From a virus (lineage: Duplodnaviria > Caudoviricetes), in the IMG/VR virus record IMGVR_UViG_3300033412_000476, positions 1 through 64,000 of that record: DNA of 64,000 bases. One strand, written 5' to 3'. Positions 27,904 to 41,604 of the stretch are shown here, in pieces (within the stretch, counting starts at the first letter, position 1; every line of letters starts with the position of its first letter). The notes under the pieces were generated by a model. The model was not told where the DNA came from. It did not search any database and worked only from the letters and a program-made list of their open reading frames with translations. The position numbers and the translations under genes are program-made.

Positions 27904-27960
27904 GCTCGGGTTCCAGCCGAGCGTCGCACAACCAGACGTTGCCTCAACCGGGCATATTCT
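27904..27960 (-). promoter_or_regulatory. Degenerate promoter plus leader hairpin cassette
   Basis: AGAATA-N16-CGTCTGG; GCTCGG-CTGGAAC-CCGAGC. Confidence 0.6.
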
Positions 27961-28495
27961 TCAAGACCGGTCGCACGATGAAGCCGTACGCGTCGAGCGC
28001 TGCAGCTTCACTCGCGGTCACACGGAAGACTTCGCCTGCGCGCAGCTGGGCAACGATCCACATCGCGGGCTCAATGCCGAGCCCGCTGCAAACCCGCAGC
28101 AGTGTCGCGACGTAAGCTTCGTGTTGCTCGCGGTCGAGCGGCAGCGCGACGACCTCCCAAGTGCACTCGATTACCGGCGGGCGTTTCGCAAACCAGCGCC
28201 CGAGCTCCGCTGCACTCGGCTGCCTGGGATTTGTCGTGAGGGCGATGAGCCGCTCGCGGGCTTCCGCTTCTAGCGCGCGGTTCTTCTCGTCGAGCGCTTC
28301 TAGCAGCGCATCCGCGCACGCGACCGCGGTACGTTCAACGCTGTCGTCTGCTGAGCCCGTCGCGTGACCCAAGATGTATGGTTGCCGCACCGTCGGATCC
28401 TCGAGCAGTAGCTTGAAGATCTCGAGCGCGAAGCGTTCACGTGTTTCCATCAGAGCGCTACCTTCCTGGTTCCATGCGAGCATAGTAGTGGCCAT
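27944..28495 (-). CDS. hypothetical protein
   Basis: ORF track; start uncertain. Confidence 0.5.
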   Translation of the reverse strand: MATTMLAWNQEGSALMETRERFALEIFKLLLEDPTVRQPYILGHATGSADDSVERTAVACADALLEALDEKNRALEAEARERLIALTTNPRQPSAAELGRWFAKRPPVIECTWEVVALPLDREQHEAYVATLLRVCSGLGIEPAMWIVAQLRAGEVFRVTASEAAALDAYGFIVRPVLKNMPG

Positions 28496-28850
28496 CGGGG
28501 AGAATCGAGACCAGGCGAATCAGACATGCACGAGACAGGATGCGCGCGGTCCTGATCTGTTGACCTCGTACCGGCGCAGATGCTTTCGGATCAGCCGGCA
28601 ACGACTGAAGTAACGCCGTCTGTGCAGGCGTGAGCCTAGGCGCTGTACCGCGCGAACGCCGCGCGCTGTACTGCGGGCTTTGACCCCGCAGCTTGTTGGC
28701 GAGCGCGCGGGCTGCGCCGAGCGTCAAGCCCCCGCGGACGTGCAGTGCGCCGATGACGTCGTCGTGGCTCAGCGACTCGAGCGCGGCGAGTATCGCGCCA
28801 ACGTCCTTTCGATTCAGTGGGATCACTTCGTTGGGTGTTTGCGAGCTCAC
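28458..28850 (-). CDS. hypothetical protein
   Basis: GTG overlapping the helicase stop. Confidence 0.45.
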   Translation of the reverse strand: MSSQTPNEVIPLNRKDVGAILAALESLSHDDVIGALHVRGGLTLGAARALANKLRGQSPQYSARRSRGTAPRLTPAQTALLQSLPADPKASAPVRGQQIRTARILSRACLIRLVSILPDGHYYARMEPGR

Positions 28851-30400
28851 TTCACGTCCCCGTCGAGCCACACCAGCTCATGCTTGGCGCGCGTGATGGC
28901 GACGTAGCGGATGTTCTCTTCTTCGGTGCCTTCACGCCAGGTCGTGGTCTCGCCGCGGCTCTTGCAGAAGGTCGCCGAGAGCAGCCACACGCGGCCAGCC
29001 TCGAGCCCCTTGGCGCGGTGGACGGTCGACAGCATGATCACGCTGCTGACGTCGTCGCCGGTGAAGAGCGTGTCAAAGCGCGCGTACAGCTCCGCGAAGC
29101 TGTAGATGCCCTCGACCAAGGCCGTGATGACCGCGCGGTTGTCTCCTGCGATCTCGATGGCGGTCTCGCCGGTGCTCGGGTCGATCTCGCCGCGCTCGAC
29201 GCGCTTGTTGATGACTCGGATCTCAGCGTCGAGCTGTCGGTCGAGCTCCGCGAGCAACCCATCGATGTTGCGCACGCCCGAGCGCTCCACACTCTCGACC
29301 TGCTTGCGCAAGCCTTGGCTGAGGTCACGGCCGCGGATGCGCGCGGCCTTGCCGTTCTTGAGCAGCGTGAGCGCTGCAGGCACGAGCGGGGCGTTGGTAC
29401 GGCTGAGCACGAAATCGCCCGGACCAGCTTCGCGCACGAGCGTGTCGCGTACGTCGAGTGCGTGGCGCACGATGCCGACCGGCGCGGTCGCCGCTGCAAC
29501 GAAGTCGAGGACCAACTTCACAGCCTCGGCCACGACTGCTTGCGGGCAGCGATAGGTGGTCTTCAGGCCCAGCTCGACAGCTTGGAGCGAGCCCTTCATG
29601 CGATCGAGTGCGCTCGCGTCCGCCCCGCGCCAGCTGTAGAGACACTGCCTGTCGTCGCCGATCACGCACACTCGGCCCTCCGGCCGCGTCGCCTTGGTTG
29701 CCAGCTCGAGCTGTGCCGCGGACATGTCCTGCGCTTCGTCAACGCACACGAGGTCATAGCGGCCGAACACCATCCCGTGCACGAGCGGCAGGAAGATCAT
29801 GTCCGAGAAGTCGATCGTGTCGGTCCGGTCGGCGGCGATCTCGGCAGCATCGAGCGCCCACTGCGCGACTGCGCCGTCAGTCCAGCCCCGATCTTCGTCG
29901 AAGTCCTCGCTCGGCAGCAGGTGACCGTAATCGAACGCCATCTGCGTGACGGTGTCCCATGCGCCGTCGTCAGCGTACGCGCGGCCCTTGTCGGTGTCCC
30001 AGTACACCAGGTGTGGCTTGATCTCGCGGATCTTGGTGCACAGCTCGGCAACGCAGCGCAGGACCGACTGAGGGGCGTTCTTGGGCACTACGGCCTTGGC
30101 CAAGGACCACTTGCGGCGGTTGTCGACGTTGAGCTTGGGCCACGCGCGCCGCAGGTACGAGAACCCCAGGCCGTGCAGCGTCTTAGCCTCGGCGCGCGGG
30201 TTGGTCAGCCGCGACTGCAGCTCATCGGCGATGATCTTGTTGAACGCCGCGAGCAAGATCCGGCGCTCGGGCGCACGCGAAATCCCCTCGATGATCGTCG
30301 TCGTCTTGCCCGTGCCAGCGCGAGCGCGAATCACCAGGTTGCCCTTGCCCTCGGCAAACCAGCGGAAGATGTCGTTTTGCTCGGGGCTCCAAGTCTTCAC
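28847..30400 (-). CDS. UvrD/Rep-family SF1A helicase
   Basis: ARAGTGKTT, VDEAQD, GDDRQCLYSWRGA, STVHRAKGLEA, YVAITRAK; start moved to GTG 30400 after GAGGGAG. Confidence 0.9.
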   Translation of the reverse strand: MKTWSPEQNDIFRWFAEGKGNLVIRARAGTGKTTTIIEGISRAPERRILLAAFNKIIADELQSRLTNPRAEAKTLHGLGFSYLRRAWPKLNVDNRRKWSLAKAVVPKNAPQSVLRCVAELCTKIREIKPHLVYWDTDKGRAYADDGAWDTVTQMAFDYGHLLPSEDFDEDRGWTDGAVAQWALDAAEIAADRTDTIDFSDMIFLPLVHGMVFGRYDLVCVDEAQDMSAAQLELATKATRPEGRVCVIGDDRQCLYSWRGADASALDRMKGSLQAVELGLKTTYRCPQAVVAEAVKLVLDFVAAATAPVGIVRHALDVRDTLVREAGPGDFVLSRTNAPLVPAALTLLKNGKAARIRGRDLSQGLRKQVESVERSGVRNIDGLLAELDRQLDAEIRVINKRVERGEIDPSTGETAIEIAGDNRAVITALVEGIYSFAELYARFDTLFTGDDVSSVIMLSTVHRAKGLEAGRVWLLSATFCKSRGETTTWREGTEEENIRYVAITRAKHELVWLDGDVK

Positions 30401-30450
30401 GGCTGCATACTCCCTCTGTTCAGGCTGCGGTGCCTGTTGCGTTGCCCTTC

Positions 30451-30478
30451 TTAGACGAATCCTCGCCACGGCTATTCA
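30451..30478 (-). promoter_or_regulatory. ECF-like promoter
   Basis: TGAATA-N15-CGTCTAA. Confidence 0.8.
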
Positions 30479-30485
30479 CTCGCTT

Positions 30486-30716
30486 TCACGGAAGCAGACA
30501 GTAGCTTGCGCGGCCGACGGCGATCGCGAGCGTTGCACCGTAGAAGTCGCGGCCGTCATCGCCGACGCGCACGACCCACACCCATTCGAGCGCGACCCCG
30601 AGCGGTTCGAGCGCGACAGCCTTGTGCTGCTCTCGCGAGATCGAGACTGTGTGATACGCCTGCGCCAAGCGCTCGATCTCAGCCTGCACTTCGGCGGCGC
30701 GGTGCAGCGTCTTCAC
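30486..30716 (-). CDS. small hypothetical protein
   Basis: Coupled to the upstream ORF. Confidence 0.55.
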   Translation of the reverse strand: MKTLHRAAEVQAEIERLAQAYHTVSISREQHKAVALEPLGVALEWVWVVRVGDDGRDFYGATLAIAVGRASYCLLP

Positions 30717-31018
30717 GGCAACGCTCGGAAGGTCGACCCGACCAGTGGCACGGCGATGTGTTCGCCGCGTGACTCGAGTGACCAGTCCGGATAGAGCGCC
30801 ACGCAGCCGGGCTCGGGCTCGAACGCGACGCTACCGATTGCCGCCCCGCGCTCAGCTCGACGCTGCAGCGCGTCGATTCGAGCCTGCGCAATGTCGGCCC
30901 GCTTGCGCGGCGAAAGGTGCGCTGTGCTGTTACCGATCTCGCCGCCGCGCCCTTGGATCGGCCCGACCAGCACACGACCATCCGCCAACTTCACGCGAAA
31001 CCGCACTACGCCTTCCAT
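30713..31018 (-). CDS. small hypothetical protein
   Basis: AGGAGGA RBS, start MEGVVRF. Confidence 0.6.
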   Translation of the reverse strand: MEGVVRFRVKLADGRVLVGPIQGRGGEIGNSTAHLSPRKRADIAQARIDALQRRAERGAAIGSVAFEPEPGCVALYPDWSLESRGEHIAVPLVGSTFRALP

Positions 31019-31043
31019 TCCGATCCTCCTACAGCTCGCCCGC

Positions 31044-31071
31044 TTAGACGAAAACTGTTTTCGGCGATTCA
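31044..31071 (-). promoter_or_regulatory. ECF-like promoter
   Basis: TGAATC-N15-CGTCTAA; spacer holds GAAAACAGTTTTC inverted repeat. Confidence 0.8.
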
Positions 31072-31260
31072 ACGCTCCGCGGCGTCGACCTCCAAGATCG
31101 TGAAGACCACCGCGCGCAGCCGAGCGTATGTCAGCTCGTCGCCCGGCTTGGATGCACGCGCACCCATTCGGAAGAGCCGACCGAGCGCCATCCGCATCAA
31201 CACGGCGCGCTCGTCCTTGCTCAGCGAGGCGATCGCCTCCGCTTCTGCAGGTAGGCTCAT
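31069..31260 (-). CDS. small hypothetical protein
   Basis: Stop TGA is the -35 box of the next promoter. Confidence 0.55.
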   Translation of the reverse strand: MSLPAEAEAIASLSKDERAVLMRMALGRLFRMGARASKPGDELTYARLRAVVFTILEVDAAER

Positions 31261-31265
31261 GATCT

Positions 31266-31655
31266 TCAGGCCCCCCAGATCAAGCCGTCGTCACCCACAT
31301 ACAGGTGATACTCGTGGAACGCTTTGCATGCATCGGTGAGCGTTGTTGCGGCGGGCTCCGACCAATCGCCATCCCAGAACCCCGCGCCGTGGCCGTTGCG
31401 CGTCAGCCAAAAGTCGTGGCCGGCTTGCTCGTCCTCAGAGTGCTCGCTCACGCGGGCCCACTGACCGGACCACGTCGAGCGCTGCGCTTCGAAGAAGGCT
31501 TTGCAGTCCGCTTCGAGCTTCGCGCGAGTCTCGGGCGCGAGATCTTCCGGGCCGTAGTTGTCGTCGATCGGATCGCCGCCGTCGTCGCGACTCTCGTCGT
31601 TGCTCGACCACAGGGCGCACGTGATGTACGCCCGCGTGAAGTCCGCGAGGCTCAC
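31266..31655 (-). CDS. conserved phage early protein (GHDFWLTRNxHGAGFWD family)
   Basis: AYITCALWSS...AGHDFWLTRNGHGAGFWDGDW; function not known to me. Confidence 0.72.
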   Translation of the reverse strand: MSLADFTRAYITCALWSSNDESRDDGGDPIDDNYGPEDLAPETRAKLEADCKAFFEAQRSTWSGQWARVSEHSEDEQAGHDFWLTRNGHGAGFWDGDWSEPAATTLTDACKAFHEYHLYVGDDGLIWGA

Positions 31656-31885
31656 AACGACACCTCGCGGTCAAAGGTGACCTGCAGGTTGAACACGCCG
31701 TGCACGTCGTGCCGCAGGGGCACGAGCGCGTAGATCCGCTGCGCACGTAGCGCGAAGCTGCACCGGTGCACGACCATGTCCGGGCTGCGTCGGCAGCTCT
31801 TCAGCAGCCCTTGCGCCGCTGCGCGATCGATCGGCTTGCCGTTCCAGGGCAAGCCCGTGCCAAAGAGAACGTATTGATAGCCCAC
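31652..31885 (-). CDS. small hypothetical protein
   Basis: AGGAG plus CAAC-GTG after the hairpin. Confidence 0.55.
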   Translation of the reverse strand: MGYQYVLFGTGLPWNGKPIDRAAAQGLLKSCRRSPDMVVHRCSFALRAQRIYALVPLRHDVHGVFNLQVTFDREVSL

Positions 31886-31900
31886 GTTGCTTGTCTCCTG

Positions 31901-31955
31901 CCCCGGGTTCCAGCCGGGGTTGCATCTTAGACGTTGTCTGCTTGCTCTGCATTCA
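31901..31955 (-). promoter_or_regulatory. Promoter plus leader hairpin cassette
   Basis: TGAATG-N16-CGTCTAA; CCCCGG-CTGGAAC-CCGGGG. Confidence 0.8.
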
Positions 31956-32160
31956 TCCATTCGAGCAGCGAAACATGCCGATCGACGATCTTCACAGTGA
32001 AGGTGTGACCCGTCCGCGCAAGCGACACGCACAGCGCCGAGAAGTCCGTATCGGTGTGGTGCGCATGCACGTACGGCTCACCCTTCGCGATACGCGCCGA
32101 GCCAAGGCGTGCGTTGTGACCACAGCGCAAGCGCACCACCTCGACAACTACGGCGCTCAC
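31927..32160 (-). CDS. small hypothetical protein
   Basis: GTG coupled to upstream stop; its TAA is inside CGTCTAA. Confidence 0.5.
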   Translation of the reverse strand: MSAVVVEVVRLRCGHNARLGSARIAKGEPYVHAHHTDTDFSALCVSLARTGHTFTVKIVDRHVSLLEWMNAEQADNV

Positions 32161-32372
32161 GGTGCCTCGACTGCGCGCACGTCTGCGACGTCGTAGTTGA
32201 CCTCGCAGCCCGCGAAAACGCCGGAGTCGATCTTCAGGACCGCGAGCACCCCGCGGCCATAGTCGTGATACCGCACGAATGTGTAGCCTTTGAACCAGTC
32301 CGCGCAGCGGTAGGCCCACAGCGTGCGCACTTCGACCGGCGCACCGGGTTTCAGATCGAGTTGCGTGTTCAT
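32157..32372 (-). CDS. small hypothetical protein (SH3-like pattern)
   Basis: LKPGAPVEV...WFKG..FV; coupled. Confidence 0.5.
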   Translation of the reverse strand: MNTQLDLKPGAPVEVRTLWAYRCADWFKGYTFVRYHDYGRGVLAVLKIDSGVFAGCEVNYDVADVRAVEAP

Positions 32373-32599
32373 CGCGACACCGCGTCTGCAGGCACGTAGG
32401 CGTAGCGGTGTGCGAGGTCGTGGCGACCGAACGAGTCCGGGCCGGCGTTCCACTCAGGCAGGAACCGCTCGGGGTTCCTGACGGCATACAGCGGCTTGCC
32501 CATGCCGTCGGGGACGACGTCCAGCTCGGTCCCCGCGGGGACGTCGATCACCGTCGAGCGCGTGATCGTGAGCCGTAGTGCTCGGTTGGTGACTGGCAT
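32369..32599 (-). CDS. small hypothetical protein
   Basis: GAGGTAGG RBS. Confidence 0.55.
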   Translation of the reverse strand: MPVTNRALRLTITRSTVIDVPAGTELDVVPDGMGKPLYAVRNPERFLPEWNAGPDSFGRHDLAHRYAYVPADAVSR

Positions 32600-32603
32600 G
32601 TTC

Positions 32604-32882
32604 CTACCTCAGCCCTTTCCAGTGTTGGATCTGAAGATCTTTTGCGTACCGCTCGGTATCGGCGACACTCACCCAATGCCAGGGTGCGCCCGCACAGAGT
32701 CGAAACTGCAGCGCGACACCTAGCTCAACGCCAACACGTGCGTCTGTGTTCAGCACGTCGCGCAGAGCTTGCATTGCGCCGAGCAACGTTCGATGTGGTC
32801 GGCTGCTAGCGGGCCAGCCTCTGGGGTTGTCAGCGTGCACGGGGCCGCCGTCGCTTACGTATCTGATCCGCCAAGTGCCCAC
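32604..32882 (-). CDS. small hypothetical protein
   Basis: GAGG RBS. Confidence 0.5.
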   Translation of the reverse strand: MGTWRIRYVSDGGPVHADNPRGWPASSRPHRTLLGAMQALRDVLNTDARVGVELGVALQFRLCAGAPWHWVSVADTERYAKDLQIQHWKGLR

Positions 32883-32886
32883 GGTG

Positions 32887-33102
32887 CTACCTCACGCCCG
32901 GCGGGAAGATCTCGGCGAACGCTTCCGCCTCGTCGTCGAAGTTGAAGTGACCCCATTCGCAGCGCGCTTTGCGGACAACCGCTGCGCGGTCAGCACCCTT
33001 GATCGTGCTGTACGGGCAGCGCGCAACCCAGGTGCCGTCAGGCGCTTGCGTCAAGCTGTAGTTGGTGCGGATGTACCGCTGCCGTTCGTTCGGCGTTGAC
33101 AC
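32887..33102 (-). CDS. small hypothetical protein
   Basis: GGAGG plus CAAC-GTG. Confidence 0.6.
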   Translation of the reverse strand: MSTPNERQRYIRTNYSLTQAPDGTWVARCPYSTIKGADRAAVVRKARCEWGHFNFDDEAEAFAEIFPPGVR

Positions 33103-33116
33103 GTTGCCTCCGTTCT

Positions 33117-33170
33117 CGCGGGTTCCGCCGCGTTGTGCTGATTAGACGTTGCTCGTGCTCGAGGGATTCA
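33117..33170 (-). promoter_or_regulatory. Promoter plus leader hairpin cassette
   Basis: TGAATC-N16-CGTCTAA; CGCGG-CGGAAC-CCGCG. Confidence 0.82.
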
Positions 33171-33513
33171 CCCGACCGGGGCAGAAATCGCCCCGCACGC
33201 ACGTCTGCGTGACTGCGGAGAGCACCGATCCACAGCGTGAGCACGCGCCGATCGTCGGCGCAGTGCGGCCCGACGCTGCGCTCGCGATCTTCGCAAGCAG
33301 TGCTCGCCCGGCTTCCGTTGCGGTCGCGTACGGATAGGCGACTGTCACCAGATCCTTGCGTGCCAGCTCATAGCAGGCTCCGCCGTTGGTTGCTTCGTGG
33401 CACCCATGCGGTCGAGCGGCCGCGAGTAGCGTGTCGTACAGGCGCCAACTGAGGGCCTTGCAGCCGTTGTCCCGGGCTGCTGTCCACGTGCGTTTGGCTT
33501 GGGCGCGGTTCAT
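33142..33513 (-). CDS. hypothetical protein, C-terminal CxxC..C..C
   Basis: Stop TAA inside CGTCTAA. Confidence 0.55.
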   Translation of the reverse strand: MNRAQAKRTWTAARDNGCKALSWRLYDTLLAAARPHGCHEATNGGACYELARKDLVTVAYPYATATEAGRALLAKIASAASGRTAPTIGACSRCGSVLSAVTQTCVRGDFCPGRVNPSSTSNV

Positions 33514-33767
33514 GGTTCTTCACCACAGCGGCGAAGCACGTCACAGTAGTAGGCGTCAAGCGTCCCGCAGTGGAGTCGACCCGACTCCATGTTCAGCAAA
33601 CCCCGCGCTGCGCGGCACAAGTCAGCCAGGTAGTCCGCGGCGTACTCGTCCGCAGCCCACTGCGCAGCGGCCGTAACGATCGCTCTGTGCAGCTGCACAT
33701 GTGCTCGCTCGGGACCGCGGGGTGACGCCATCGCGGCGTCGTGCCGAGTCTTCTCGTCCGTGCTCAC
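33510..33767 (-). CDS. small hypothetical protein
   Basis: GGAAGG plus CAAC-GTG. Confidence 0.6.
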   Translation of the reverse strand: MSTDEKTRHDAAMASPRGPERAHVQLHRAIVTAAAQWAADEYAADYLADLCRAARGLLNMESGRLHCGTLDAYYCDVLRRCGEEP

Positions 33768-33783
33768 GTTGACCTTCCGTTCT

Positions 33784-33839
33784 GCGCGGGTTTCCGCCGC
33801 GCGTGCCTGGTTAGACGAAAACTGTTTGCGAGGTATTCA
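33784..33839 (-). promoter_or_regulatory. Promoter plus leader hairpin cassette
   Basis: TGAATA-N16-CGTCTAA; GCGCGG-CGGAAAC-CCGCGC. Confidence 0.85.
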
Positions 33840-34130
33840 GTCGTTCCAAGGCCGACGATCGGCGCCGTCGGAGTCTTTGAGTGTGCACAGCGCGCACGGG
33901 TTAGGGCCTGGCCTGCCGCAGTCGCACGCGACCTCACGCCGCGACAACTCGAGCCCGTCGAACGTTGCCGCACACTGAGCCACGCGAGCGGGGTTGAGCA
34001 CGCGCAGCGCGTCGCCTTCCGCCGACGACTCTGCGGCGCGCGTGCGGAGCACGAGGCTGCGAAACTCGCGGTAGTCCTCGGGTGACTGCGCAGTGACGTC
34101 CACGAGCCAGCCCTTGCGAAGCGTGATCAT
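33837..34130 (-). CDS. small hypothetical protein with CxC..CxxC
   Basis: Stop TGA is the -35 box. Confidence 0.55.
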   Translation of the reverse strand: MITLRKGWLVDVTAQSPEDYREFRSLVLRTRAAESSAEGDALRVLNPARVAQCAATFDGLELSRREVACDCGRPGPNPCALCTLKDSDGADRRPWND

Positions 34131-34471
34131 GTCGCCACCTCCCCGATCACTTCGCCCGAGATACCATCGAAAAGCAGGAACGACCGCGCGGTATTGCCCA
34201 GCTTTTCAGCCGCCCACACACGCGCTTCCGCGATGCTGGCGAAGCAGCCCCGGGTCAAGGTCGCGAACGGTCCCGTTGACTCTGTGGGGTGCCATTCGGT
34301 GCGACCCTCGATCGTGAACGGAATGCAAACCGTCCAGTAGCGGTCGAACACTAGCGAGCCGTCGACGTCGACCTTTCGGCCAACCACTGACGCCAGATCA
34401 CCCATAGCCACAAGCACCCTCCGTCGGCCTGCCATCTTCAGTGCGCGTAGGCCAGATCGCGCAGACCCCAA
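34127..34471 (-). CDS. small hypothetical protein (start uncertain)
   Basis: Stop coupled to the next ATG. Confidence 0.5.
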   Translation of the reverse strand: MGSARSGLRALKMAGRRRVLVAMGDLASVVGRKVDVDGSLVFDRYWTVCIPFTIEGRTEWHPTESTGPFATLTRGCFASIAEARVWAAEKLGNTARSFLLFDGISGEVIGEVAT

Positions 34472-34486
34472 GTCGGGGTTTCGGCT

Positions 34487-34732
34487 TCAGTCGATCGTCA
34501 GATCGTACAGGTGCTGGACGCCACCGTCGGAGTAGTCGACGCCCCACAGCAAGCGCGCCGCACCGGGGTCACGCTTGGGGCTGAGCCCTACCGCGATCGT
34601 CTCGCCCGACTCGCAGCTGACGTCGGAAGCCAGCTCGCGCGCTGCAGCTTCGATGGCCTGCGGGTTCGCTTCGCCATGCAGCTGCCGAGCATGGCAGTCG
34701 CCAAACCGATCCTTGATCACCACACAACCCAT
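34487..34732 (-). CDS. small hypothetical protein
   Basis: AAAGGAG RBS after the hairpin. Confidence 0.6.
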   Translation of the reverse strand: MGCVVIKDRFGDCHARQLHGEANPQAIEAAARELASDVSCESGETIAVGLSPKRDPGAARLLWGVDYSDGGVQHLYDLTID

Positions 34733-34748
34733 GACGCATCGCTCCTTT

Positions 34749-34799: not shown

Positions 34800-35153
34800 C
34801 TTCGCCGCGTACTTCGCCCAACGGCGAGCGCGCTTGATGCGGTACTGCGCGCGGACATCGGCGATCGCCTCGTCACGCGTAGCGCCGAGCCCGGTCGCAA
34901 CGAGGTTTCCGCCGCGGTACAGCTCAGCGTGCCGGTAGCCCCCGGGCATACCCGGGGTGTAGGGGTCCTCGCGCACCTGAAAGCGCTGGCCAAAGCCGTC
35001 CAGCTCGCGAAGCTTCGCCTTGTCTTCGCTGTAGGTCGCCGCCGCGCGCAACCAGCGGACCGTCGCAGAGGTGCCGCACAGCGCGGTCACTTCGCCGATG
35101 TCGTGCTCCGCACTACCGGGCCGACCCGACGCAACCATGGACCCTACACGCAT
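34797..35153 (-). CDS. first leftward early-type gene, hypothetical
   Basis: AGGAGG RBS; stop TGA is the next -35 box. Confidence 0.6.
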   Translation of the reverse strand: MRVGSMVASGRPGSAEHDIGEVTALCGTSATVRWLRAAATYSEDKAKLRELDGFGQRFQVREDPYTPGMPGGYRHAELYRGGNLVATGLGATRDEAIADVRAQYRIKRARRWAKYAAK

Positions 35154-35170
35154 TCGCCGTACCTCCTGCC

Positions 35171-35224
35171 GGGGGTTTCCGCCCCGTTCGCCCATTTAGA
35201 CGGGGGCCCCCGGGGGCGTATTCA
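35171..35224 (-). promoter_or_regulatory. Leftward central promoter plus hairpin
   Basis: TGAATA-N16-CGTCTAA; GGGG-CGGAAAC-CCCC. Confidence 0.85.
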
Positions 35225-35229
35225 AAGGC

Positions 35230-35291
35230 TGTCAAAAAATAGCTCTTTTTTGACAAAAAGCCTGCGTATTACTATAGTAATACACGCTTTT
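35230..35291. promoter_or_regulatory. AT-rich divergence centre: 10-6-10 inverted repeat, 18-bp palindrome and rightward sigma70 promoter
   Basis: TGTCAAAAAA-TAGCTC-TTTTTTGACA (35230-35255); GTATTACTATAGTAATAC (35266-35283); TTGACA-N17-TATAGT (35250-35278). Confidence 0.75.
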
Positions 35292-35303
35292 CTTTGGGCA
35301 TGG

Positions 35304-35356
35304 TGAATACGGCCCGAAAACCGCCGTCTAATAGGGCGAACGCGGCGGAAACCGCG
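35304..35356 (+). promoter_or_regulatory. Rightward central promoter plus hairpin
   Basis: TGAATA-N15-CGTCTAA; CGCGG-CGGAAA-CCGCG. Confidence 0.85.
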
Positions 35357-35396
35357 GAAGAACCCCCGGGATGGATCCGGGGCTGAAGGAGGGCTT

Positions 35397-35894
35397 ATGG
35401 CACTGCATTTCAAGGGTGAACGGGGCGTCCAGTACGCCGGGCGCGTGCTGCGCGACCGCTACGTGAGTGACGTTCGGATCATGAGTGACGTTTGGGCTGG
35501 ACAGTACATGCTCGATTGCGTCGAGCCCGATGGATCGATCACGTCGATCGCGTACATGACGGAAGGCTTTGGCGGGAACCCGGGGCTGGAGTCGTGGGAG
35601 ATCGACGCCACCCCGGAAGCGATCGCGCAGCACGAAGCTTGGCTCGCGGCGCGCGAGGCTGAGCGCGTCGAGCTGGAAGCGCGCCGCGCTCGCGCGATCG
35701 CCGCAGCTGAGGCTAAGGCGGTTCGCAAGGGCCGGCGCTGCAAGGTTGTGCGCGGTCGCAAGGTGCCCAAGGGCACGGAAGGCGTGTGCATCTGGGTTGG
35801 CGACGGTCACTACGGCGAGCGTTGCGGCATCAAGGACGACTCCGGAACCGTCCACTGGACCGCGAGCAAGAACGTCGAAGCGATCGCCCCGTGA
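35397..35894 (+). CDS. first rightward early-type gene, hypothetical with SH3/KOW-like C-terminus
   Basis: AAGGAGG RBS; KGRRCKVVRGRKVPKGTEG...GERCGI. Confidence 0.65.
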   Translation: MALHFKGERGVQYAGRVLRDRYVSDVRIMSDVWAGQYMLDCVEPDGSITSIAYMTEGFGGNPGLESWEIDATPEAIAQHEAWLAAREAERVELEARRARAIAAAEAKAVRKGRRCKVVRGRKVPKGTEGVCIWVGDGHYGERCGIKDDSGTVHWTASKNVEAIAP

Positions 35895-35906
35895 TCGCTA
35901 GCGCGT

Positions 35907-35992
35907 GAGCCCCCTGCGGGGCTCCGCATCCCTCGCAGCGCAAGCGCCCGACGTTGGCGCGGCGAGGGATGCGCCGGCCGGAACACCGGCGC
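35907..35992 (+). other. Structured intergenic leader ending in a GGAA-loop hairpin
   Basis: GAGCCCC/GGGGCTC hairpin; CGCATCCCTCGC/GCGAGGGATGCG 12-bp stem; GCGCCGG-CCGGAACA-CCGGCGC then AGGAGG (inner coordinates approximate). Confidence 0.6.
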
Positions 35993-36007
35993 TAGGAGGC
36001 TAGGAAC

Positions 36008-36349
36008 GTGGATCAACATGATCTCCCGCGGAGCTTTGGCCGACGTACGGCCGGTGTAGCTAACGCACGTGCAGCAGCACAACGGCTGATCGCCGATGCG
36101 ACCGCGCTGGACGGCGGTGCGATCGACCGCGCGAAGTATCTGCTAGAGCTTCGCCCCGCAACGCTGGCCAAAGCCTGCGGGATCACTACGGCTGATCTGC
36201 AAGCACTGCTCTGCGAAGCCCGTGAGCAGTACCACACCGCTGAGCACGCGCGACCTGTGCGCGCCAGTGTCAGCATGATCCGTCGGCGTGTCGAGTTTCG
36301 CGTAGCGCTCGCGCTCGCGAAAGAGATCGTAGTGAATACCGGCAGCTGA
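36008..36349 (+). CDS. hypothetical protein, possible HTH
   Basis: PATLAKACGITTADL; RBS plus AAC-GTG. Confidence 0.55.
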   Translation: MDQHDLPRSFGRRTAGVANARAAAQRLIADATALDGGAIDRAKYLLELRPATLAKACGITTADLQALLCEAREQYHTAEHARPVRASVSMIRRRVEFRVALALAKEIVVNTGS

Positions 36350-36361
36350 AGCGCCGTCTAA
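36333..36361 (+). promoter_or_regulatory. ECF-like promoter (no hairpin)
   Basis: TGAATA-N16-CGTCTAA. Confidence 0.82.
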
Positions 36362-36388
36362 GACAGCAAACCCGAGAGAAGGAAGAAC

Positions 36389-36775
36389 ATGGCAAAGTCT
36401 ACTGTGGACACAGTCCGCGGCGTCCCGTTCGCGGACATGGGCGAAGAAGAGCTTGCGGCGTACGCACACGGCGCTGCGCAGTCGAGCGATGAAGGCTATA
36501 ACCAAGCCGTCGCACGCGCGGCACGCAAGGAAATCGCCAAGCGCGCCAAGCGCGCCAACGATCTGACCGAGTACGCGGTCGACGGCTTCAACGGTGCTGA
36601 GTGCAGATTGCTCTACTCGTCGGCGGCATGGTTTGCGTTCCAGCTCGGGGTTTACCTCAAAGCGACCGGGCGCTCGACCCCGCGCGACGTTCGCATGGGT
36701 CGTGGGTACTCGGTGCGCTGCGCCGACATGCTCTTCAAGCACGTGGACGGCGCGACGTTCGAACGCGTGCAGTGA
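36389..36775 (+). CDS. hypothetical protein
   Basis: Stop TGA is the next -35 box. Confidence 0.6.
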   Translation: MAKSTVDTVRGVPFADMGEEELAAYAHGAAQSSDEGYNQAVARAARKEIAKRAKRANDLTEYAVDGFNGAECRLLYSSAAWFAFQLGVYLKATGRSTPRDVRMGRGYSVRCADMLFKHVDGATFERVQ

Positions 36776-36828
36776 ATACCGGCGGCTGAAGTTTCGTCTA
36801 ACCACAAACCGCGCGGCGGAACCCGCGC
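36773..36828 (+). promoter_or_regulatory. Promoter plus leader hairpin cassette
   Basis: TGAATA-N16-CGTCTAA; GCGCGG-CGGAAC-CCGCGC; AGGAGAGG. Confidence 0.87.
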
Positions 36829-36844
36829 ATCGTTAGGAGAGGTC

Positions 36845-37222
36845 ATGGAGCAACTCAGCTTGGGGATGCTGACGTGCGACGCGCACGAGGCATCGGCACC
36901 TTACGAGTCGGATCGTTGGGCGAGCACCGATCGCGGCTGGCTGTACGACCCTGCGCACCCTAATGCGGACTACCACGGCGGCAACCTGCCGATCGGCAAC
37001 TATCTCGATTACGGGCCGTGCGGAGAGCACTACCGCAACAACCCCGACGGCGCCGTGCACGTGTGCTTCACGCCGTGGTGGATCGACCCCGTGACGCGGT
37101 CGATCTGCCGCGGAGTGACAGAGAGCACGCACGTGCACACCCCTGCAGAGGCGCAAGCCTGGCTCGCCGAGCAGTACCGCCTGTGGACGGCGCGGCGTGC
37201 CGCAGACAAGGTGACGCCGTGA
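36845..37222 (+). CDS. hypothetical protein
   Basis: Strong RBS; coupled to the RadC-like gene. Confidence 0.6.
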   Translation: MEQLSLGMLTCDAHEASAPYESDRWASTDRGWLYDPAHPNADYHGGNLPIGNYLDYGPCGEHYRNNPDGAVHVCFTPWWIDPVTRSICRGVTESTHVHTPAEAQAWLAEQYRLWTARRAADKVTP

Positions 37223-37689
37223 AAAACTACTTGGACAAACTGATTGTACGGCGCGAGCGGAGCCTCGTGTGCGAGTCGGACGGGCCGCTCGGCCGCAAGA
37301 TCACGCACAGCGGCGACATCGCGAAGATCGCGATCCCGCTGATTGGGCCTGAGGCTGTCGAAGTGTTCGTGATCTTCGCGCTGACCGCGCGACACAAGGT
37401 CACGGGCTACCACGAAGTGGCGCGTGGCTCGCTAAGCAGCTGCGCAGTCAGCCCCGGGGACGTCGCGCGCGTCGCGTTGATCGCGGGCACGCCGGCCTTC
37501 ATCGTGGCCCACAACCACCCTAGCGGCGAGCCTGAGCCCAGCCCCGAGGACATCGCGCTCACGCGGAAGATCAAGCAGGCTTTCGACCTGCTCGGACTGA
37601 CCCTGCTCGATCACGTGATCGTCACGAGCGAGCACCACAAGAGCTTGCTCGATATGGGCCTGCTCGACGTTTCCGTGAAACCGGCGTGA
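37219..37689 (+). CDS. RadC-like JAB domain protein
   Basis: EVFVIF...EVARGSL...HNHPSGEPEPSPED...LLDHVIV; stop TGA is a -35 box. Confidence 0.88.
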   Translation: MKNYLDKLIVRRERSLVCESDGPLGRKITHSGDIAKIAIPLIGPEAVEVFVIFALTARHKVTGYHEVARGSLSSCAVSPGDVARVALIAGTPAFIVAHNHPSGEPEPSPEDIALTRKIKQAFDLLGLTLLDHVIVTSEHHKSLLDMGLLDVSVKPA

Positions 37690-37749
37690 ATACCGGCAGC
37701 TGAAGTTTCGTCTAAGAGGCACAAGCAAGCGGCGCGGCTGGACCCGCGC
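37687..37749 (+). promoter_or_regulatory. Promoter plus leader hairpin cassette
   Basis: TGAATA-N16-CGTCTAA; GCGCGG-CTGGAC-CCGCGC. Confidence 0.85.
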
Positions 37750-37766
37750 AAGGATGGGAGAGCAAC

Positions 37767-38339
37767 ATGGCAACGGACATCATGGCTTGGTGGAAGCTGC
37801 ACTTGCCGCCGCACCTGCGCGAGACGGCGCCCGAGCGGCCCGAGGGAACCGACCTCGCGATCTGGCGCGAGGAGATCGACGGCAATCCGTTCGCGTACGG
37901 CTTCCAAGGCAAAGCGCGTCAGCCCGTGTGGGCCTATCGCTTCAAGGACGCCGCGCACCGTGAGCGGTTCATCGGTGAGAAGATCGCCGCACGTAGGGCG
38001 CACTTCGGTCGCAAGGCTGAGCGCGCAGCGGAACGCAAGCAGGCGACGCACAGCCTCACGGTGGGTGACATCTTGTCCTCGAGCTGGGGCTACGACCAGA
38101 CCAACGTCGATTTCTACGAGGTGGTCGCCGTCCCTAGCTCCAAGTCGGTAATCATCCGGAAGATCGCCAGTCAGGCGGCCGCTCGCGACCGCGTCGCGCC
38201 GCAGCCCGGGGTGTTCATCGAGGGCCCCATGCTCAAGCGCGTGACCGCCCACGGCTCCGTGAAGATCGAGGATTACGCCTGGGCCAGCAAGTGGTCCGGA
38301 GCTCCGATGTACCAGACCGACATCCACGAGGGTCACTGA
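37767..38339 (+). CDS. conserved phage hypothetical protein
   Basis: VGDIL.SSWGYDQTNVDFYEVV pattern. Confidence 0.68.
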   Translation: MATDIMAWWKLHLPPHLRETAPERPEGTDLAIWREEIDGNPFAYGFQGKARQPVWAYRFKDAAHRERFIGEKIAARRAHFGRKAERAAERKQATHSLTVGDILSSSWGYDQTNVDFYEVVAVPSSKSVIIRKIASQAAARDRVAPQPGVFIEGPMLKRVTAHGSVKIEDYAWASKWSGAPMYQTDIHEGH

Positions 38340-38354
38340 GCTTTGCGCCTGCGT

Positions 38355-38407
38355 TGAATACCTGAAAACTGTTTTCGTCTAAGCTGACGGCTCGGCTGGA
38401 ACCCGAG
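38355..38407 (+). promoter_or_regulatory. Promoter plus leader hairpin cassette
   Basis: TGAATA-N15-CGTCTAA (spacer GAAAACTGTTTTC); CTCGG-CTGGAAC-CCGAG. Confidence 0.85.
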
Positions 38408-38424
38408 CAGAAGGGAGAATCAAC

Positions 38425-38787
38425 GTGCAACTCGACATCGAATACGTGCTCGCGGGCGAGCCGGAAGACTGCGACCCAGCAGATCACTTCGACGACAGCG
38501 ACGAAGGCGACGCCGACGTCACATGGGTTCATGAGCAACTCAGCGCCGGCAACCAGTGGGCCTGGTTTCGCGCGGTCGTCACCGCCCGCGTTACACTCGA
38601 CGGCCAAACGTTCGAAGGCGTCGACTCGCTCGGGTGCTGCTCGTACAAGTCGGAGGACGACTTTCGACAGTGCCAGTACTTCGACGACATGAAGACTGAG
38701 GCGCGCTACGCCTTGCTCGCGTCACTGCACACCGCCGTCCGTAGGGGCGAGCTTGCCGCGGTCGCGCTGACCCAGGTGACGCCATGA
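38425..38787 (+). CDS. conserved phage hypothetical protein (acidic)
   Basis: G..WAWF...V......G.DSLG.CSY pattern; GGGAG plus CAAC-GTG. Confidence 0.65.
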   Translation: MQLDIEYVLAGEPEDCDPADHFDDSDEGDADVTWVHEQLSAGNQWAWFRAVVTARVTLDGQTFEGVDSLGCCSYKSEDDFRQCQYFDDMKTEARYALLASLHTAVRRGELAAVALTQVTP

Positions 38788-39032
38788 TCTACGGACGATT
38801 TGGCGACGCAGTCACGATCGTGCGCATGGGCACGCTCGACGACGTCAAGACGATCGACGGCCGCAAGCCCGACAAGCAGGACCGCGAGGCTGTCGAGATC
38901 GGTAGCTACGTCGTAGTCCGCCAGGACAACGGCAAAGAGCGGCTCTACCACCTTGCGTTCCTGCGCGCCGACGGCGGCAGCAAAGAGATCAACGAGGCAA
39001 TCGCCGCCTGCGACCCCTGGAGCCAGCCATGA
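38784..39032 (+). CDS. small hypothetical protein
   Basis: Coupled. Confidence 0.58.
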   Translation: MIYGRFGDAVTIVRMGTLDDVKTIDGRKPDKQDREAVEIGSYVVVRQDNGKERLYHLAFLRADGGSKEINEAIAACDPWSQP

Positions 39033-39244
39033 AGGGTCTACGCCGGCTGAAGCAGCCGCAGATCGAGTACATCGGCCGCGGGCCTCGTGTGGTCGCGCTG
39101 AGCGCAGCGAGCGCGCTCTACTTCTTCGGCTTCGACAGCGAAAACTATGAAGCTGTCGACGTCGGTCCGCCGGCTGATCCGCACCGCTGGAAGCCGGAAG
39201 CTCGCGTGTACGAGTGCCGCAAGAAGCAATCGAAGATGAACTGA
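39029..39244 (+). CDS. small hypothetical protein
   Basis: Coupled. Confidence 0.5.
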   Translation: MKGLRRLKQPQIEYIGRGPRVVALSAASALYFFGFDSENYEAVDVGPPADPHRWKPEARVYECRKKQSKMN

Positions 39245-39246
39245 GC

Positions 39247-39265
39247 CTCGAGCTGGAACCTCGAG
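39247..39265 (+). promoter_or_regulatory. Leader hairpin without recognisable promoter
   Basis: CTCGAG-CTGGAAC-CTCGAG, then GGGAG plus AAC-GTG. Confidence 0.75.
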
Positions 39266-39286
39266 CATCAACAGGGAGAAACGAAC

Positions 39287-39556
39287 GTGAGTATGAACAG
39301 ACCCAGCGTCACCGTACGTAACAACAACGTCCCCGGTGCGGCGGCTGACGGTGAGACGATCGTCGAGTTTAGCTTTCAGGACAGCACTGGCGGGCTGATC
39401 TCGTTCAGCATCGACGCGGAAGGCAACCCGCGCGTGGAGCTCTACCGCTGCGACGAAGGCATCCGCGTAGGACTCGACAATCTGACTGACCACAAAGGCG
39501 GCAAGCTGATCGCCGCGAGCGACATGTCGCTAGCCCGGATCGGAATCACCAAGTGA
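39287..39556 (+). CDS. small hypothetical protein
   Basis: RBS; coupled downstream. Confidence 0.58.
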   Translation: MSMNRPSVTVRNNNVPGAAADGETIVEFSFQDSTGGLISFSIDAEGNPRVELYRCDEGIRVGLDNLTDHKGGKLIAASDMSLARIGITK

Positions 39557-39828
39557 GCACCCACGATCCCGAGCTGCTGTTCATCGCGCACTACCCGCCG
39601 GGCCCGGTGCGCACGTTCGCCGCGCGGCTGCTCAACGAGGTGGGCTGCGCGGTGCAGACCGAAGACTACATCGCAGGCGTCGCCGAGTGCTGCGGCTGCA
39701 GCACCGCCGACCGCGAGCGCGTGATCACGCGCGCCATCGATTGCGGCTTTCTGCGCGCTGACGCGCTGCAGTGGGCGCCCCGAGGCAAACCCCGCTACAT
39801 CCCTTGCCTGTTCGCGGTGCAGCCATGA
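39553..39828 (+). CDS. small hypothetical protein
   Basis: Coupled. Confidence 0.5.
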   Translation: MSTHDPELLFIAHYPPGPVRTFAARLLNEVGCAVQTEDYIAGVAECCGCSTADRERVITRAIDCGFLRADALQWAPRGKPRYIPCLFAVQP

Positions 39829-40166
39829 GTTTCACCATGAAGGCGATCGCCATCGAGATGCGCAAGCGCGTCGCCACGCGGCGCAAGCCTACACTGGACG
39901 CGCTACGCGCGATGTCGCTACAGCAGATCGATCAGCTTCTCACGGAGTGCGCGGTCAAGGTTGTTCGCCTGCATACGTCGAAGTCGACGCCGCTGCGTTC
40001 GTACGCCTGCAAGCTCCGGCGGTTCGACGGCTCAACAGTCGAGCGCTTCGCAACGACAGCCGGACAGGCACTTCTCGACGCGCTCGACAGCGCAACAGAC
40101 GCCGGCTGGTTCGGCGATCACTACGAGCAACGAAACCAACTACAGGAGACAGCGCAAGATGAGTGA
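39825..40166 (+). CDS. hypothetical protein
   Basis: Coupled. Confidence 0.5.
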   Translation: MSFTMKAIAIEMRKRVATRRKPTLDALRAMSLQQIDQLLTECAVKVVRLHTSKSTPLRSYACKLRRFDGSTVERFATTAGQALLDALDSATDAGWFGDHYEQRNQLQETAQDE

Positions 40167-40374
40167 GAGAACCGACAGAGCCCGCGTGGTTGCGGGCGCA
40201 ATCAAAGCCAAGGTCGCTGCCTACGAGAACGGCGAGTGCGACAACGGCGCGCTCGACGTTGCCACCAACGCGATCGCCATGCTCGGCCAGCTGGCCGACG
40301 CGGTGCTCACGCTCGCCGAAGAGCACGATCATCTCGAGCGCACGCTCGCCTCACGCACGGATCACCTCGCGTGA
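40159..40374 (+). CDS. small helical hypothetical protein
   Basis: AGGAG RBS. Confidence 0.5.
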   Translation: MSERTDRARVVAGAIKAKVAAYENGECDNGALDVATNAIAMLGQLADAVLTLAEEHDHLERTLASRTDHLA

Positions 40375-40571
40375 CCAAACCCCTGAACGAGATACTTCAA
40401 ACGAAGATCCTCGAGCAACGCTCCGGCGCGCTGCTGCGCGCGTACGAGCTGATGCAGGAGACTGCGAAGCAGATGCCTCCGGCTGCGCGCAAGCTGGCCG
40501 ATCGCGCGCTCCTCGAGCTCGAGGCGTTCGGCCAGAGTCTCGAGCGTGAGTACCGCTCAAGGGGACTGTAG
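40371..40571 (+). CDS. small helical hypothetical protein
   Basis: GTG coupled to upstream stop. Confidence 0.5.
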   Translation: MTKPLNEILQTKILEQRSGALLRAYELMQETAKQMPPAARKLADRALLELEAFGQSLEREYRSRGL

Positions 40572-40573
40572 CG

Positions 40574-40822
40574 ATGACGCTCGAGGAGATCATCGCAGCG
40601 ATCGGCCGGCACATGTTCTCGCGAACGCAGCTGAACCGCGAAGTCTCCGCACGCGTGCACCTACACAACGACGTGCTCATCGGCAGTCTGTACCGCGACG
40701 TGCTCACTGACGAGATCACGCTGCTAGTTCAACTCGGCCAAGCTTGGTGCTACGGCTGGCAGCCCGAGGAAGCCCGCGCAACGTACTACCTGTCGCGGTT
40801 CACCAGGAGCCTGCGGCCATGA
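40574..40822 (+). CDS. small hypothetical protein
   Basis: In operon. Confidence 0.5.
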   Translation: MTLEEIIAAIGRHMFSRTQLNREVSARVHLHNDVLIGSLYRDVLTDEITLLVQLGQAWCYGWQPEEARATYYLSRFTRSLRP

Positions 40823-41211
40823 AGAACAGAAACCGTTTCAGGACCATCCACCGGAAAGCAACGATGCCCGCGCCCAAGAACGTGATCTTCGCCCCAACGA
40901 GCGTGCACATCTATCCGGACAGTCAACGGGGGCAGGTTGCCTTCGAGCTGCGCAACAAGGCTAATAAGCCGCTGATGACGCTGCTACTCGAACCTGAGGG
41001 CGCCGCGAATCTGTTTGCGAAGCTCGGAGAGGCCCTCGTCGCGATCACCGGTACCGCGGACCACTGGCGTCGCGGCGCTGTCGAGCCGCAGAAGACGCAA
41101 GCGCGCTGCACATGCCCTTGCCCTGACGATCCCGACAAGCCGTCGACCGATCCGACCGCGCACTACATCGGTTGTCCGTTTCGCGCAGAGCTCGAGGCGC
41201 AGACCGAGTGA
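40819..41211 (+). CDS. hypothetical protein, C-terminal CxC...H..CP
   Basis: AGGAG RBS; coupled. Confidence 0.55.
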   Translation: MKNRNRFRTIHRKATMPAPKNVIFAPTSVHIYPDSQRGQVAFELRNKANKPLMTLLLEPEGAANLFAKLGEALVAITGTADHWRRGAVEPQKTQARCTCPCPDDPDKPSTDPTAHYIGCPFRAELEAQTE

Positions 41212-41522
41212 AGATCAGAGTCAAGACGCCGCGACGGCTGCCGCCCAAGGCAGAAGCGATCGATTACCCAGAGATCATTTCGCAGATCAATCGGGAGCTG
41301 GAGCACCACGGCCTGAGCGCGCTCGACTTGCTCAGCAGCTTCGCGCTGCATCTGTTGGGCGTCGCGCTGGACGTCACCCCGCAGCACCCCGTCAGCCAAC
41401 AAAAGGTCTATAGAGACCTGCACTTAGAGATCAGCCGCATGGTCGGAGAGGCGCTCGACCGCAAGCAGCGTCTACTCGGATCTCCGCTGGGCAACCAGTC
41501 GCTACCGAAGGAGCGAGACTAG
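41208..41522 (+). CDS. hypothetical protein
   Basis: GTG coupled. Confidence 0.5.
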   Translation: MKIRVKTPRRLPPKAEAIDYPEIISQINRELEHHGLSALDLLSSFALHLLGVALDVTPQHPVSQQKVYRDLHLEISRMVGEALDRKQRLLGSPLGNQSLPKERD

Positions 41523-41550
41523 GAGCACGCGCGCGAAAATAGATTTCGGC

Positions 41551-41604
41551 TGAATCTTGTCGTAACGTCGGCGTCGCAGTTCAACCCTCGGCTGGAACCC
41601 GAGG
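41551..41604 (+). promoter_or_regulatory. Degenerate promoter plus leader hairpin cassette
   Basis: TGAATC-N15-CGTCGCA; CCTCGG-CTGGAAC-CCGAGG; AAGGAG. Confidence 0.7.

Follow-up and report, generated by a model that had tools for sequence, protein, structure and literature searches.

A covarying leader hairpin with a conserved GGAA loop in an uncultured soil phage, a candidate signal for joint post-transcriptional control

Leader hairpins that are shared by many phage genes are known from few models (boxB/N, the RegA/RegB targets and the PeSL elements), and most phage lineages are unexplored in this respect. Here we describe a hairpin of this kind in a 64,000-nucleotide stretch of DNA (the window), which comprises bases 1-64000 of the IMG/VR virus record IMGVR_UViG_3300033412_000476 (87,267 bp, 65% G+C). 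The element consists of a GC-rich stem of 5-8 bp and a loop of 6-8 nt with the form C-(N)-GGAA-(A)-A/C. It occurs in 14 copies, all of them between 27.9 and 41.6 kb and all sense to the downstream gene, in a zone of small genes that diverge transcriptionally from a control region at 35153-35397. The sequences support its classification as a structured 5'-leader RNA element with a covarying stem and a selected loop, outside the described families.

The boxB element of phage lambda has a 5-nt GNRA-like loop (GAAAA, GAAGA, GACAA), is accompanied by boxA and is found at a few sites ahead of terminators in long operons. Our hairpin shares with the boxB/N system a variable, short, GC-rich stem, a kept purine-rich GNRA-like loop, a place in early leaders beside a divergent control region, and a first gene that encodes a small, basic, Arg-rich protein (here p118). 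It differs in its number of copies (14-15 rather than 2), in lacking boxA and a terminator context, in being tied to the Shine-Dalgarno (SD) sequence, and in its loop, which is C-(N)-GGAA-N and not GAAAA or GACAA, a GNRA-like fold being nevertheless possible; in contrast to N, p118 carries its Arg-rich motif at the C-terminus, after a fold resembling the double-stranded RNA-binding domain (dsRBD). The leaders of E. coli ompA, B. subtilis aprE and T7 gene 10 carry 5' stem-loops that block decay from the 5' end and free the SD. Our hairpin resembles them in its apparently extreme 5' position and its strong, free SD; however, such stabilisers have no conserved loop and form no repeated family, whereas here the loop is invariant across a regulon-like set of genes. 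Translational operator hairpins are known from E. coli thrS (operator domain 2), phage Mu (Com/mom) and T4 (the RegA/RegB targets). The likeness lies in the control of initiation through a loop-specific protein site that borders the ribosome-binding site on its 5' side, and in the single signal shared by many T4 early mRNAs; there is no sequence similarity, and the binder in our case is a candidate only. The hairpin promoters of phage N4 have a stem of 5-7 bp and a 3-nt loop and are used by a giant virion RNA polymerase, in contrast to the loops of 6-8 nt described here and to a record whose largest open reading frame (ORF), of 989 aa, encodes the DNA polymerase. The promoter early stem-loop (PeSL) of T4-type phages combines a sigma70-type promoter with a stem-loop that acts as terminator or attenuator for upstream transcription (PMC2839356, PMC4122927). 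It has in common with our locus the repeated cassettes of promoter, stem-loop and SD that flank small ORFans in a plastic early region, but here the promoter is of the extracytoplasmic function (ECF) type, and the hairpin, placed downstream of its -10 box, has no U tract and keeps a fixed loop. Finally, the start-associated sequence (SAS) of Cluster K phages is a 13-bp repeat, GGGATAGGAGCCC, at the start site and including the SD, about half of the copies having an inverted repeat just upstream; the extended form (ESAS) consists of 17-bp conserved inverted repeats, and a translational function has been suggested for SAS (PMC3203893). These repeats also mark where translation begins in some of the non-structural genes, in part with an inverted repeat upstream; in our locus there is no such 13-mer, the arms vary freely around a fixed loop, and the SD is of an ordinary type. 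Judged on these features, the hairpin fails to match the defining traits of each known family tested. Rfam 15 gave no gathering-level match in the window, no match at E <= 10 overlapping the hairpins in 27800-41700 and no match to the hairpins of the related locus described below, in agreement with the original prediction that no described family fits.

All 13 hairpins on which that prediction was based are present at their sites, two of them displaced by one nucleotide (35170-35186 and 38390-38408). We identified a 14th, GGCTTGCC-CTGGAAC-GGCAAGCC, at 31833-31855(-), with an 8-bp stem (Table 1). The loop is CTGGAAC in six copies, CGGAAC in three and CGGAAAC in two, while CGGAAA, CTGGAC and CCGGAACA occur once each. 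Nine distinct stem sequences were found among the 14 copies and every pair in them is Watson-Crick, so that the stems do vary and yet stay paired around a conserved loop, as had been noticed. The proposed placement between a promoter-like motif (or an upstream stop codon) and the SD also holds, since 13 of the 14 copies are intergenic and lie there.

The evidence for the element is its recurrence and covariation and not its stability, because the folding energies of these 5-6 bp hairpins are ordinary in comparison with shuffles when single leaders are considered, a point to which we return. The original prediction had proposed a covariance model; one trained on 7 copies placed every one of the 14 among its 16 best hits in the window, and in the whole 87-kb record it finds nothing outside 27.9-41.6 kb. 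Paired cells amount to 96%, with compensatory changes at all 6 pairs in an alignment fitted to the model; this combination was reached by 0 of 500 shuffles, and controls with a slid register gave 31-55%. A motif expression, written post hoc, has 16 hits in the record as against 2.6 +/- 1.6 (maximum 9) in 200 dinucleotide shuffles. In predicted folds of the leaders, the hairpin forms in 11 of 12 and the SD and start codon are unpaired in most.

The tightest positional link of the hairpin is to the ribosome-binding site, a point absent from the original prediction. An SD of the AGGAG/GGAGG type begins 0-8 nt after the hairpin in 12 of the 13 copies, and the 3' end of the stem lies 14-17 nt from the start codon in 10 of 13 (16 nt for the copy at 34749, using the annotated start 34732). 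Of the copies without a promoter, 35971 keeps this spacing (15 nt) and 39247 stands at 21 nt. Between the -10 box and the loop there are 15 nt in 7 of the 11 copies of this phage; in the relative this distance varies over 13-35 nt, with the SD still adjacent to the hairpin, which argues for a link to the ribosome-binding site and not to the promoter. In addition, the start context AAC-GTG occurs in nine hairpin-linked genes and in a single other gene of the record. Examples are the starts at 31885, 33102, 33767, 36008, 38425 and 41626, and GTG starts make up about 37% of all gene calls.

A diverged relative was found by way of p118, which has a homologue of 66% identity in an NCBI assembly, on a contig of 87,822 bp. 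The corresponding 20-kb locus, L145, is syntenic, with protein identities of 43-76%, and contains 15 sense hairpins with the loops CGGAAA, CCGGAAA, CAGGAAA (three copies), CTGGAAA or CGGAAAA. A second covariance model detects 13 of the L145 hairpins at E < 1, three of them outside its training set, and the gap between hairpin and SD is mostly 0-7 nt by eye. The stems have changed at orthologous genes while the loop was kept: CCTCGG/CCGAGG in the RecA leader here corresponds to CCCGAG/CTCGGG in L145, GCTCGG in the p120 leader to CCGCG, and GCGCCGG in the 35971 leader to GCGCGGG. When 18 copies from the two genomes are aligned without gaps, all five pairs covary; the pairing of 100% is partly circular, because these copies were chosen for perfect stems. 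A leader of about 100 nt with three hairpins, at 35895-35992(+) here and 8545-8645(-) in L145, has about two-thirds of its columns identical, three compensatory pairs and a kept G-U pair, and its last stem is the GGAA-loop hairpin; an ECF-like promoter precedes the L145 copy, and none was found ahead of 35895-35992. It is important to note that the hairpin of an orthologous gene, for example the helicase, may be present in one genome only, so that the hairpin behaves as a portable module.

Eleven of the 14 hairpins lie 5-16 nt (mostly 7-9) downstream of a two-box motif, (G)TGAATAC-N16/17-CGTCTAA, the spacing from -10 box to stem being 5-9 nt in 10 of the 11. In total, 14 promoter-like sites of the form TGAAT-N16/17-CGTC(TAA) were found, all within 27.9-41.6 kb, and a purine stands at the 6th-8th nt past the -10 box in every one of them. 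The -10 box is a variant at 27904 (CGTCTGG) and at 41586 (CGTCGCA), the latter also in front of the RecA leader of the relative, and in L145 both boxes are kept with changed spacers. Three promoter sites have no hairpin and three hairpins have no promoter; since each occurs separately, the hairpin is not a part of the promoter. Two copies had been described as lacking a promoter, and a strict match identifies them as 35971 and 39247, to which the new copy at 31833 is added. The GAAT-N17-CGTC geometry is that of ECF-sigma promoters, which the original prediction did not report, and a characterised ECF promoter has the determinant GTTAC-N16-CGTC with CGTC at -13 to -10 (PMC3397946). If the CGTC of our sites holds the same position, transcripts would start 0-3 nt ahead of most stems.

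A candidate reader of these promoters, likewise absent from the original prediction, is encoded by the phage itself. Along its entire length, the 170-aa product of an ECF-type sigma gene aligns with TIGR02937 (E 1e-8, a score short of the curated cut-off of this model); it also matches Sigma70_r4_2 (27.2 bits when the genome was scanned, against a cut-off of 25.7; 24.8 bits on a longer ORF), a sigma family of PHROG and PDB 2q1z, the solved structure of the ECF factor SigE. Its assignment to the GAAT/CGTC promoters is an inference. The central region also contains a near-consensus sigma70 promoter, TTGACA-17-TATAGT, at 35250-35278; the host can thus be presumed to rely on ordinary promoters, the GAAT/CGTC class being a special one. 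Upstream of the sigma gene there are a 99-aa ORF (10346-10645) and a weak sigma70-like promoter (10307-10336).

We interpret the hairpin, with moderate confidence, as a 5'-proximal stem-loop of the mRNA adjacent to the ribosome-binding site, whose loop would be read by a trans-acting factor that regulates the translation or stability of a set of genes together; it is probably a post-transcriptional control signal shared by about 14 genes. Two considerations lead to this interpretation. First, the C-(N)-GGAA loop has persisted through a divergence in which neither the stems nor the promoter spacers were retained, which suggests that something reads it. Second, the strict sense orientation, the separability from the promoter and the coupling to the SD all favour an RNA element whose action follows initiation. 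In the mechanism that we propose, the leader module would start at phage-specific promoters of the ECF-sigma type, with the hairpin at or near the 5' end of the transcript; the stem would shield and insulate the 5' end and the ribosome-binding site; the loop would be docked by the reader at the 5' edge of that site; and the reader, either a phage protein (p118 being the best candidate) or the 30S platform itself, would set the translation, the lifetime or both of all tagged mRNAs jointly, after initiation. The core of the original prediction, a structured leader element read as an RNA signal, is strengthened by the changed stems of the relative; of the three mechanisms that it named (an antitermination site, a CsrA/Rsm-type site and a 5' stabiliser), none was established.

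Several observations weigh against this interpretation. The element is known from two genomes, so that duplication of a lineage-specific cassette contributes to the similarity among copies. The copy at 31833 lies about 30 nt inside a 77-aa ORF (31652-31885) whose codon bias supports coding, and no SD follows it. The folding energies are ordinary, as mentioned above, and the motif stems lack G-U pairs, for which reason the sequence does not prove an RNA over a DNA element; the transcription start sites and the folding of the RNA are themselves deduced from sequence. With respect to p118, typical dsRBDs bind helices longer than 5-6 bp, its fold matches are weak (VIA Z 5-6.4; top Foldseek rows at E > 0.001), and its single-sequence AlphaFold model has a predicted local distance difference test score of 53 overall and about 70-76 in the dsRBD-like domain.

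The reasons to consider p118 a candidate, and a lead, are nevertheless of several kinds. It is the product of the first leftward gene, and its own leader bears the hairpin in both genomes. Residues 48-118 are modelled with the topology alpha-beta-beta-beta-alpha, and the best matches, which are weak, are mainly dsRBDs in two structure aligners and with the ESM Atlas model; p118 has no Pfam match, and Foldseek returned nothing at E <= 0.001. The hallmark of dsRBDs is GxGx(S/T)(K/R)xxA at the start of helix 2. The relative has kept both the GLGATRDEA motif (recognised by eye) and the tail QYRIKRARRW of p118. The first rightward gene (35397-35894, +) encodes p165; in the ESM Atlas model, and only there, its last 65 residues are similar to a small 'putative RNA-binding protein' of the KOW type (template modelling score 0.81 by target). 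Our own single-sequence model of this C-terminus is of low confidence.

Among the alternatives, we judge the trans-acting reader most likely and, in second place, a stabiliser of the 5' terminus that is independent of any factor and insulates the ribosome-binding site, blocking decay from the 5' end (of the RppH/RNase E or RNase J type) and freeing the SD. Its loop would be conserved for folding and stability or through recent cassette duplication. We regard this explanation as unlikely; it accommodates start sites 0-3 nt ahead of the stem, an SD unpaired in most predicted folds and, as a variation on the same theme, a hammerhead ribozyme candidate in the same operon that would yield a 5'-OH followed by a 6-bp hairpin. 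A pure stabiliser, however, needs no particular loop, whereas C-(N)-GGAA is kept in 29 copies from two genomes whose stems, spacers and proteins have diverged strongly, and internal copies without a promoter hold their position relative to the SD. The stabiliser named in the original prediction thus suits the presumed 5'-terminal position and leaves the loop unexplained.

Processive antitermination of the nut/put type, in which the nascent hairpin, with or without a phage N-like protein, modifies RNA polymerase so that it passes terminators, is in our opinion improbable. In shape the element recalls boxB, since it has a short stem of GC pairs and a loop that is rich in purines and GNRA-like, and lies after early promoters, and p118 is a small basic first-gene product with an Arg-rich motif containing Trp. 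Yet the 14 and 15 copies of the two genomes share only A/C richness upstream and no boxA-like conserved flank, terminator-like sites are at chance (14 found versus 12.3 expected), single-gene units directly before a new promoter bear the hairpin while a 2.5-kb helicase unit does not, and the position is tied to the SD and not to the promoter. With boxA, terminator enrichment and a link to long operons all lacking, this part of the original prediction is not upheld.

We give very little probability to a host site of the CsrA/RsmA type, at which a dimer would bridge the GGA of the loop and that of the SD to repress translation, or at which the leaders would titrate CsrA. The geometry of two GGA motifs fits, the second lying in the SD 12-20 nt downstream of the loop GGA in 12 of the 13 copies, and in the three CAGGAAA loops of the relative an A adjoins GGA. 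The consensus for CsrA/RsmA is reportedly A(N)GGA or ACA-GGA, from SELEX (systematic evolution of ligands by exponential enrichment) and structural work on RsmE, whereas in our hairpins GGA is preceded by C, CT, CC or CA, next to a closing G-C pair, and the variable loop position is unconstrained. No match to the CsrA gene family (PF02599) was obtained in the 87-kb record, and CsrA is lacking in many high-GC soil phyla. Of this mechanism, therefore, the two-GGA geometry stands; the loop consensus and a CsrA gene in the record do not.

An element acting at the DNA level (a repressor operator at +3 to +21, a hairpin promoter of the N4 type or a recombination linker like PeSL) is just as poorly placed: cassettes are repeated among small ORFan genes, as in PeSLs (PMC2839356), and 15 nt separate the -10 box from GGA in 7 of the 11 copies of this phage, but this distance is not kept in the relative, promoter-less copies exist, no phage RNA polymerase is among the 25 most-matched Pfam and PHROG families of the record, strict sense orientation and adjacency to the SD point to RNA, and the arms vary while remaining complementary, needless for a dimer that reads sequence, which rules out an ordinary dimeric DNA operator. 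Two other possibilities were rejected: a further -35 box in the loop GGAAC, with CGTG at the start codon serving as -10 (at 18-26 nt, their spacing is not promoter geometry), and the hairpins as terminators for the antisense strand (a T-rich tail exists at 36811 only).

More speculatively, and with a probability that we consider low, the parts could form a regulon private to the phage, in which the ECF sigma would write hairpin-tagged mRNAs and p118 would read their loop, marking them as 'self', so that they are protected and translated or else are shut off jointly at a stage switch. What gives the locus its interest is that one compact signal, kept in two diverged genomes, is tied to ECF-type promoters and to the ribosome-binding site and is accompanied by a candidate sigma factor and a candidate RNA-binding protein. 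If p118 does read the hairpin, the two would constitute a new RNA-protein pair, with a dsRBD from a bacterial virus recognising a short capped hairpin through its loop. If the module is confirmed, its promoter, leader and reader would be a self-contained and portable unit for orthogonal control of expression, as well as a testable case of an uncultured soil phage that separates its own mRNAs from those of the host.

The phage is an uncultured soil phage, with near-identical contigs of 87,028-87,195 bp in other soil metagenomes. Its record codes for a family-A DNA polymerase, helicases, a RecA-like protein, methyltransferases, a small tyrosine recombinase and many small ORFans. Our Pfam and PHROG surveys covered 162 predicted proteins, and the 25 most-matched families include no RNA-binding, antiterminator, RNA polymerase, CsrA, KOW or S1 family. 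No terminase, portal or capsid family was recognised among the proteins of the record, which suggests that the virion genes are very divergent. Contigs of 87.0-87.8 kb were obtained in four independent assemblies (87,267, 87,195, 87,028 and, for the relative, 87,822 bp), and the genome may therefore be essentially complete despite a CheckV estimate of 66%. Positions 33-41 kb had no blastn match in 50,697 phage records. A search of IMG/VR had been proposed with the original prediction; our pattern scans of it (promoter alone; promoter plus loop) gave single chance matches only, the whole records behind five of them having one site each, and it was homology to p118 that led to the relative. Relatives found through the helicase in IMG/VR, JGI metagenomes and GTDB genomes are all at <=44% identity, lack the motif and give no hint of the host. 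Searches with the RecA-like and sigma proteins gave only the near-identical contigs and one sigma of 58% identity on a 1.3-kb contig, the single relative of the phage sigma among 5.8 billion proteins.

Table 1. Coordinates of the hairpins, ECF-like promoters and candidate reader genes in the window
Feature	Positions	Strand	Remarks
Hairpin GCTCGG-CTGGAAC-CCGAGC	27904-27922	-	leader of 50-aa ORF starting at 27887
Hairpin GGCTTGCC-CTGGAAC-GGCAAGCC	31833-31855	-	inside 77-aa ORF 31652-31885
Hairpin CCCCGG-CTGGAAC-CCGGGG	31901-31919	-	
Hairpin CGCGG-CGGAAC-CCGCG	33117-33132	-	
Hairpin GCGCGG-CGGAAAC-CCGCGC	33784-33802	-	
Hairpin GCGCGG-CGGAAC-CCGCGC	34749-34766	-	
Hairpin CGGGG-CGGAAAC-CCCCG	35170-35186	-	p118 leader
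Hairpin CGCGG-CGGAAA-CCGCG	35341-35356	+	p165 leader; second hairpin next at 35364-35382
Hairpin GCGCCGG-CCGGAACA-CCGGCGC	35971-35992	+	third hairpin of structured leader 35895-35992; no promoter match
Hairpin GCGCGG-CGGAAC-CCGCGC	36811-36828	+	
Hairpin GCGCGG-CTGGAC-CCGCGC	37732-37749	+	deviant loop; 16 nt past -10 box
Hairpin GCTCGG-CTGGAAC-CCGAGC	38390-38408	+	
Hairpin CTCGAG-CTGGAAC-CTCGAG	39247-39265	+	3 nt after upstream stop codon; no promoter
Hairpin CCTCGG-CTGGAAC-CCGAGG	41586-41604	+	leader of RecA-like gene
p118, small basic protein, candidate hairpin reader	34797-35153	-	dsRBD-like residues ~48-118, Arg-rich C-terminus
ECF-like promoter, variant AGAATAT-N-CGTCTGG	27932-27960	-	
ECF-like promoter without hairpin	30451-30478	-	helicase unit
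ECF-like promoter without hairpin	31044-31071	-	
ECF-like promoter TGAATG-N-CGTCTAA	31927-31955	-	
ECF-like promoter	33142-33170	-	
ECF-like promoter	33811-33839	-	
ECF-like promoter	34772-34799	-	
ECF-like promoter	35196-35224	-	leftward unit (p118)
ECF-like promoter	35304-35331	+	rightward unit (p165)
ECF-like promoter without hairpin	36333-36361	+	
ECF-like promoter	36773-36801	+	
ECF-like promoter	37687-37715	+	
ECF-like promoter	38355-38382	+	
ECF-like promoter, variant -10 CGTCGCA	41551-41578	+	same variant at the relative's RecA leader
ECF-type sigma gene, 170 aa	10651-11163	+	candidate reader of TGAATAC-N16/17-CGTCTAA promoters

The hammerhead candidate mentioned above is of type II (RF02276) and lies at 34423-34486(-), with 31.4 bits against a gathering threshold of 37, the full model matched and the core intact (CGAAAC, GUC, CUGAAGA). 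It spans the gap from the stop of the gene at 34487-34732 to the SD of the gene at 34127-34405, and after its predicted cleavage the downstream cistron would begin with a 5'-OH and, at once, a 6-bp hairpin; no counterpart was found in L145. The control region contains, at 35231-35284, an inverted repeat, TGTCAAAAAA/TTTTTTGACA, which is kept in the relative, and a perfect 18-bp palindrome, GTATTACTATAGTAATAC, which overlaps the -10 box of the sigma70 promoter; these repeats look like the operators of a repressor/Cro-type switch. Lastly, the spacers of some ECF-like promoters fall into subclasses, which may be sites for additional regulators: those of 31044-31071, 33811-33839 and 38355-38382 hold the palindrome GAAAAC(A/T)GTTTTC (one of them imperfect), and those of 36333-36361, 36773-36801 and 37687-37715 hold CCGGC(A/G)GCTGAAG, as does the site at 8075-8101 in L145.

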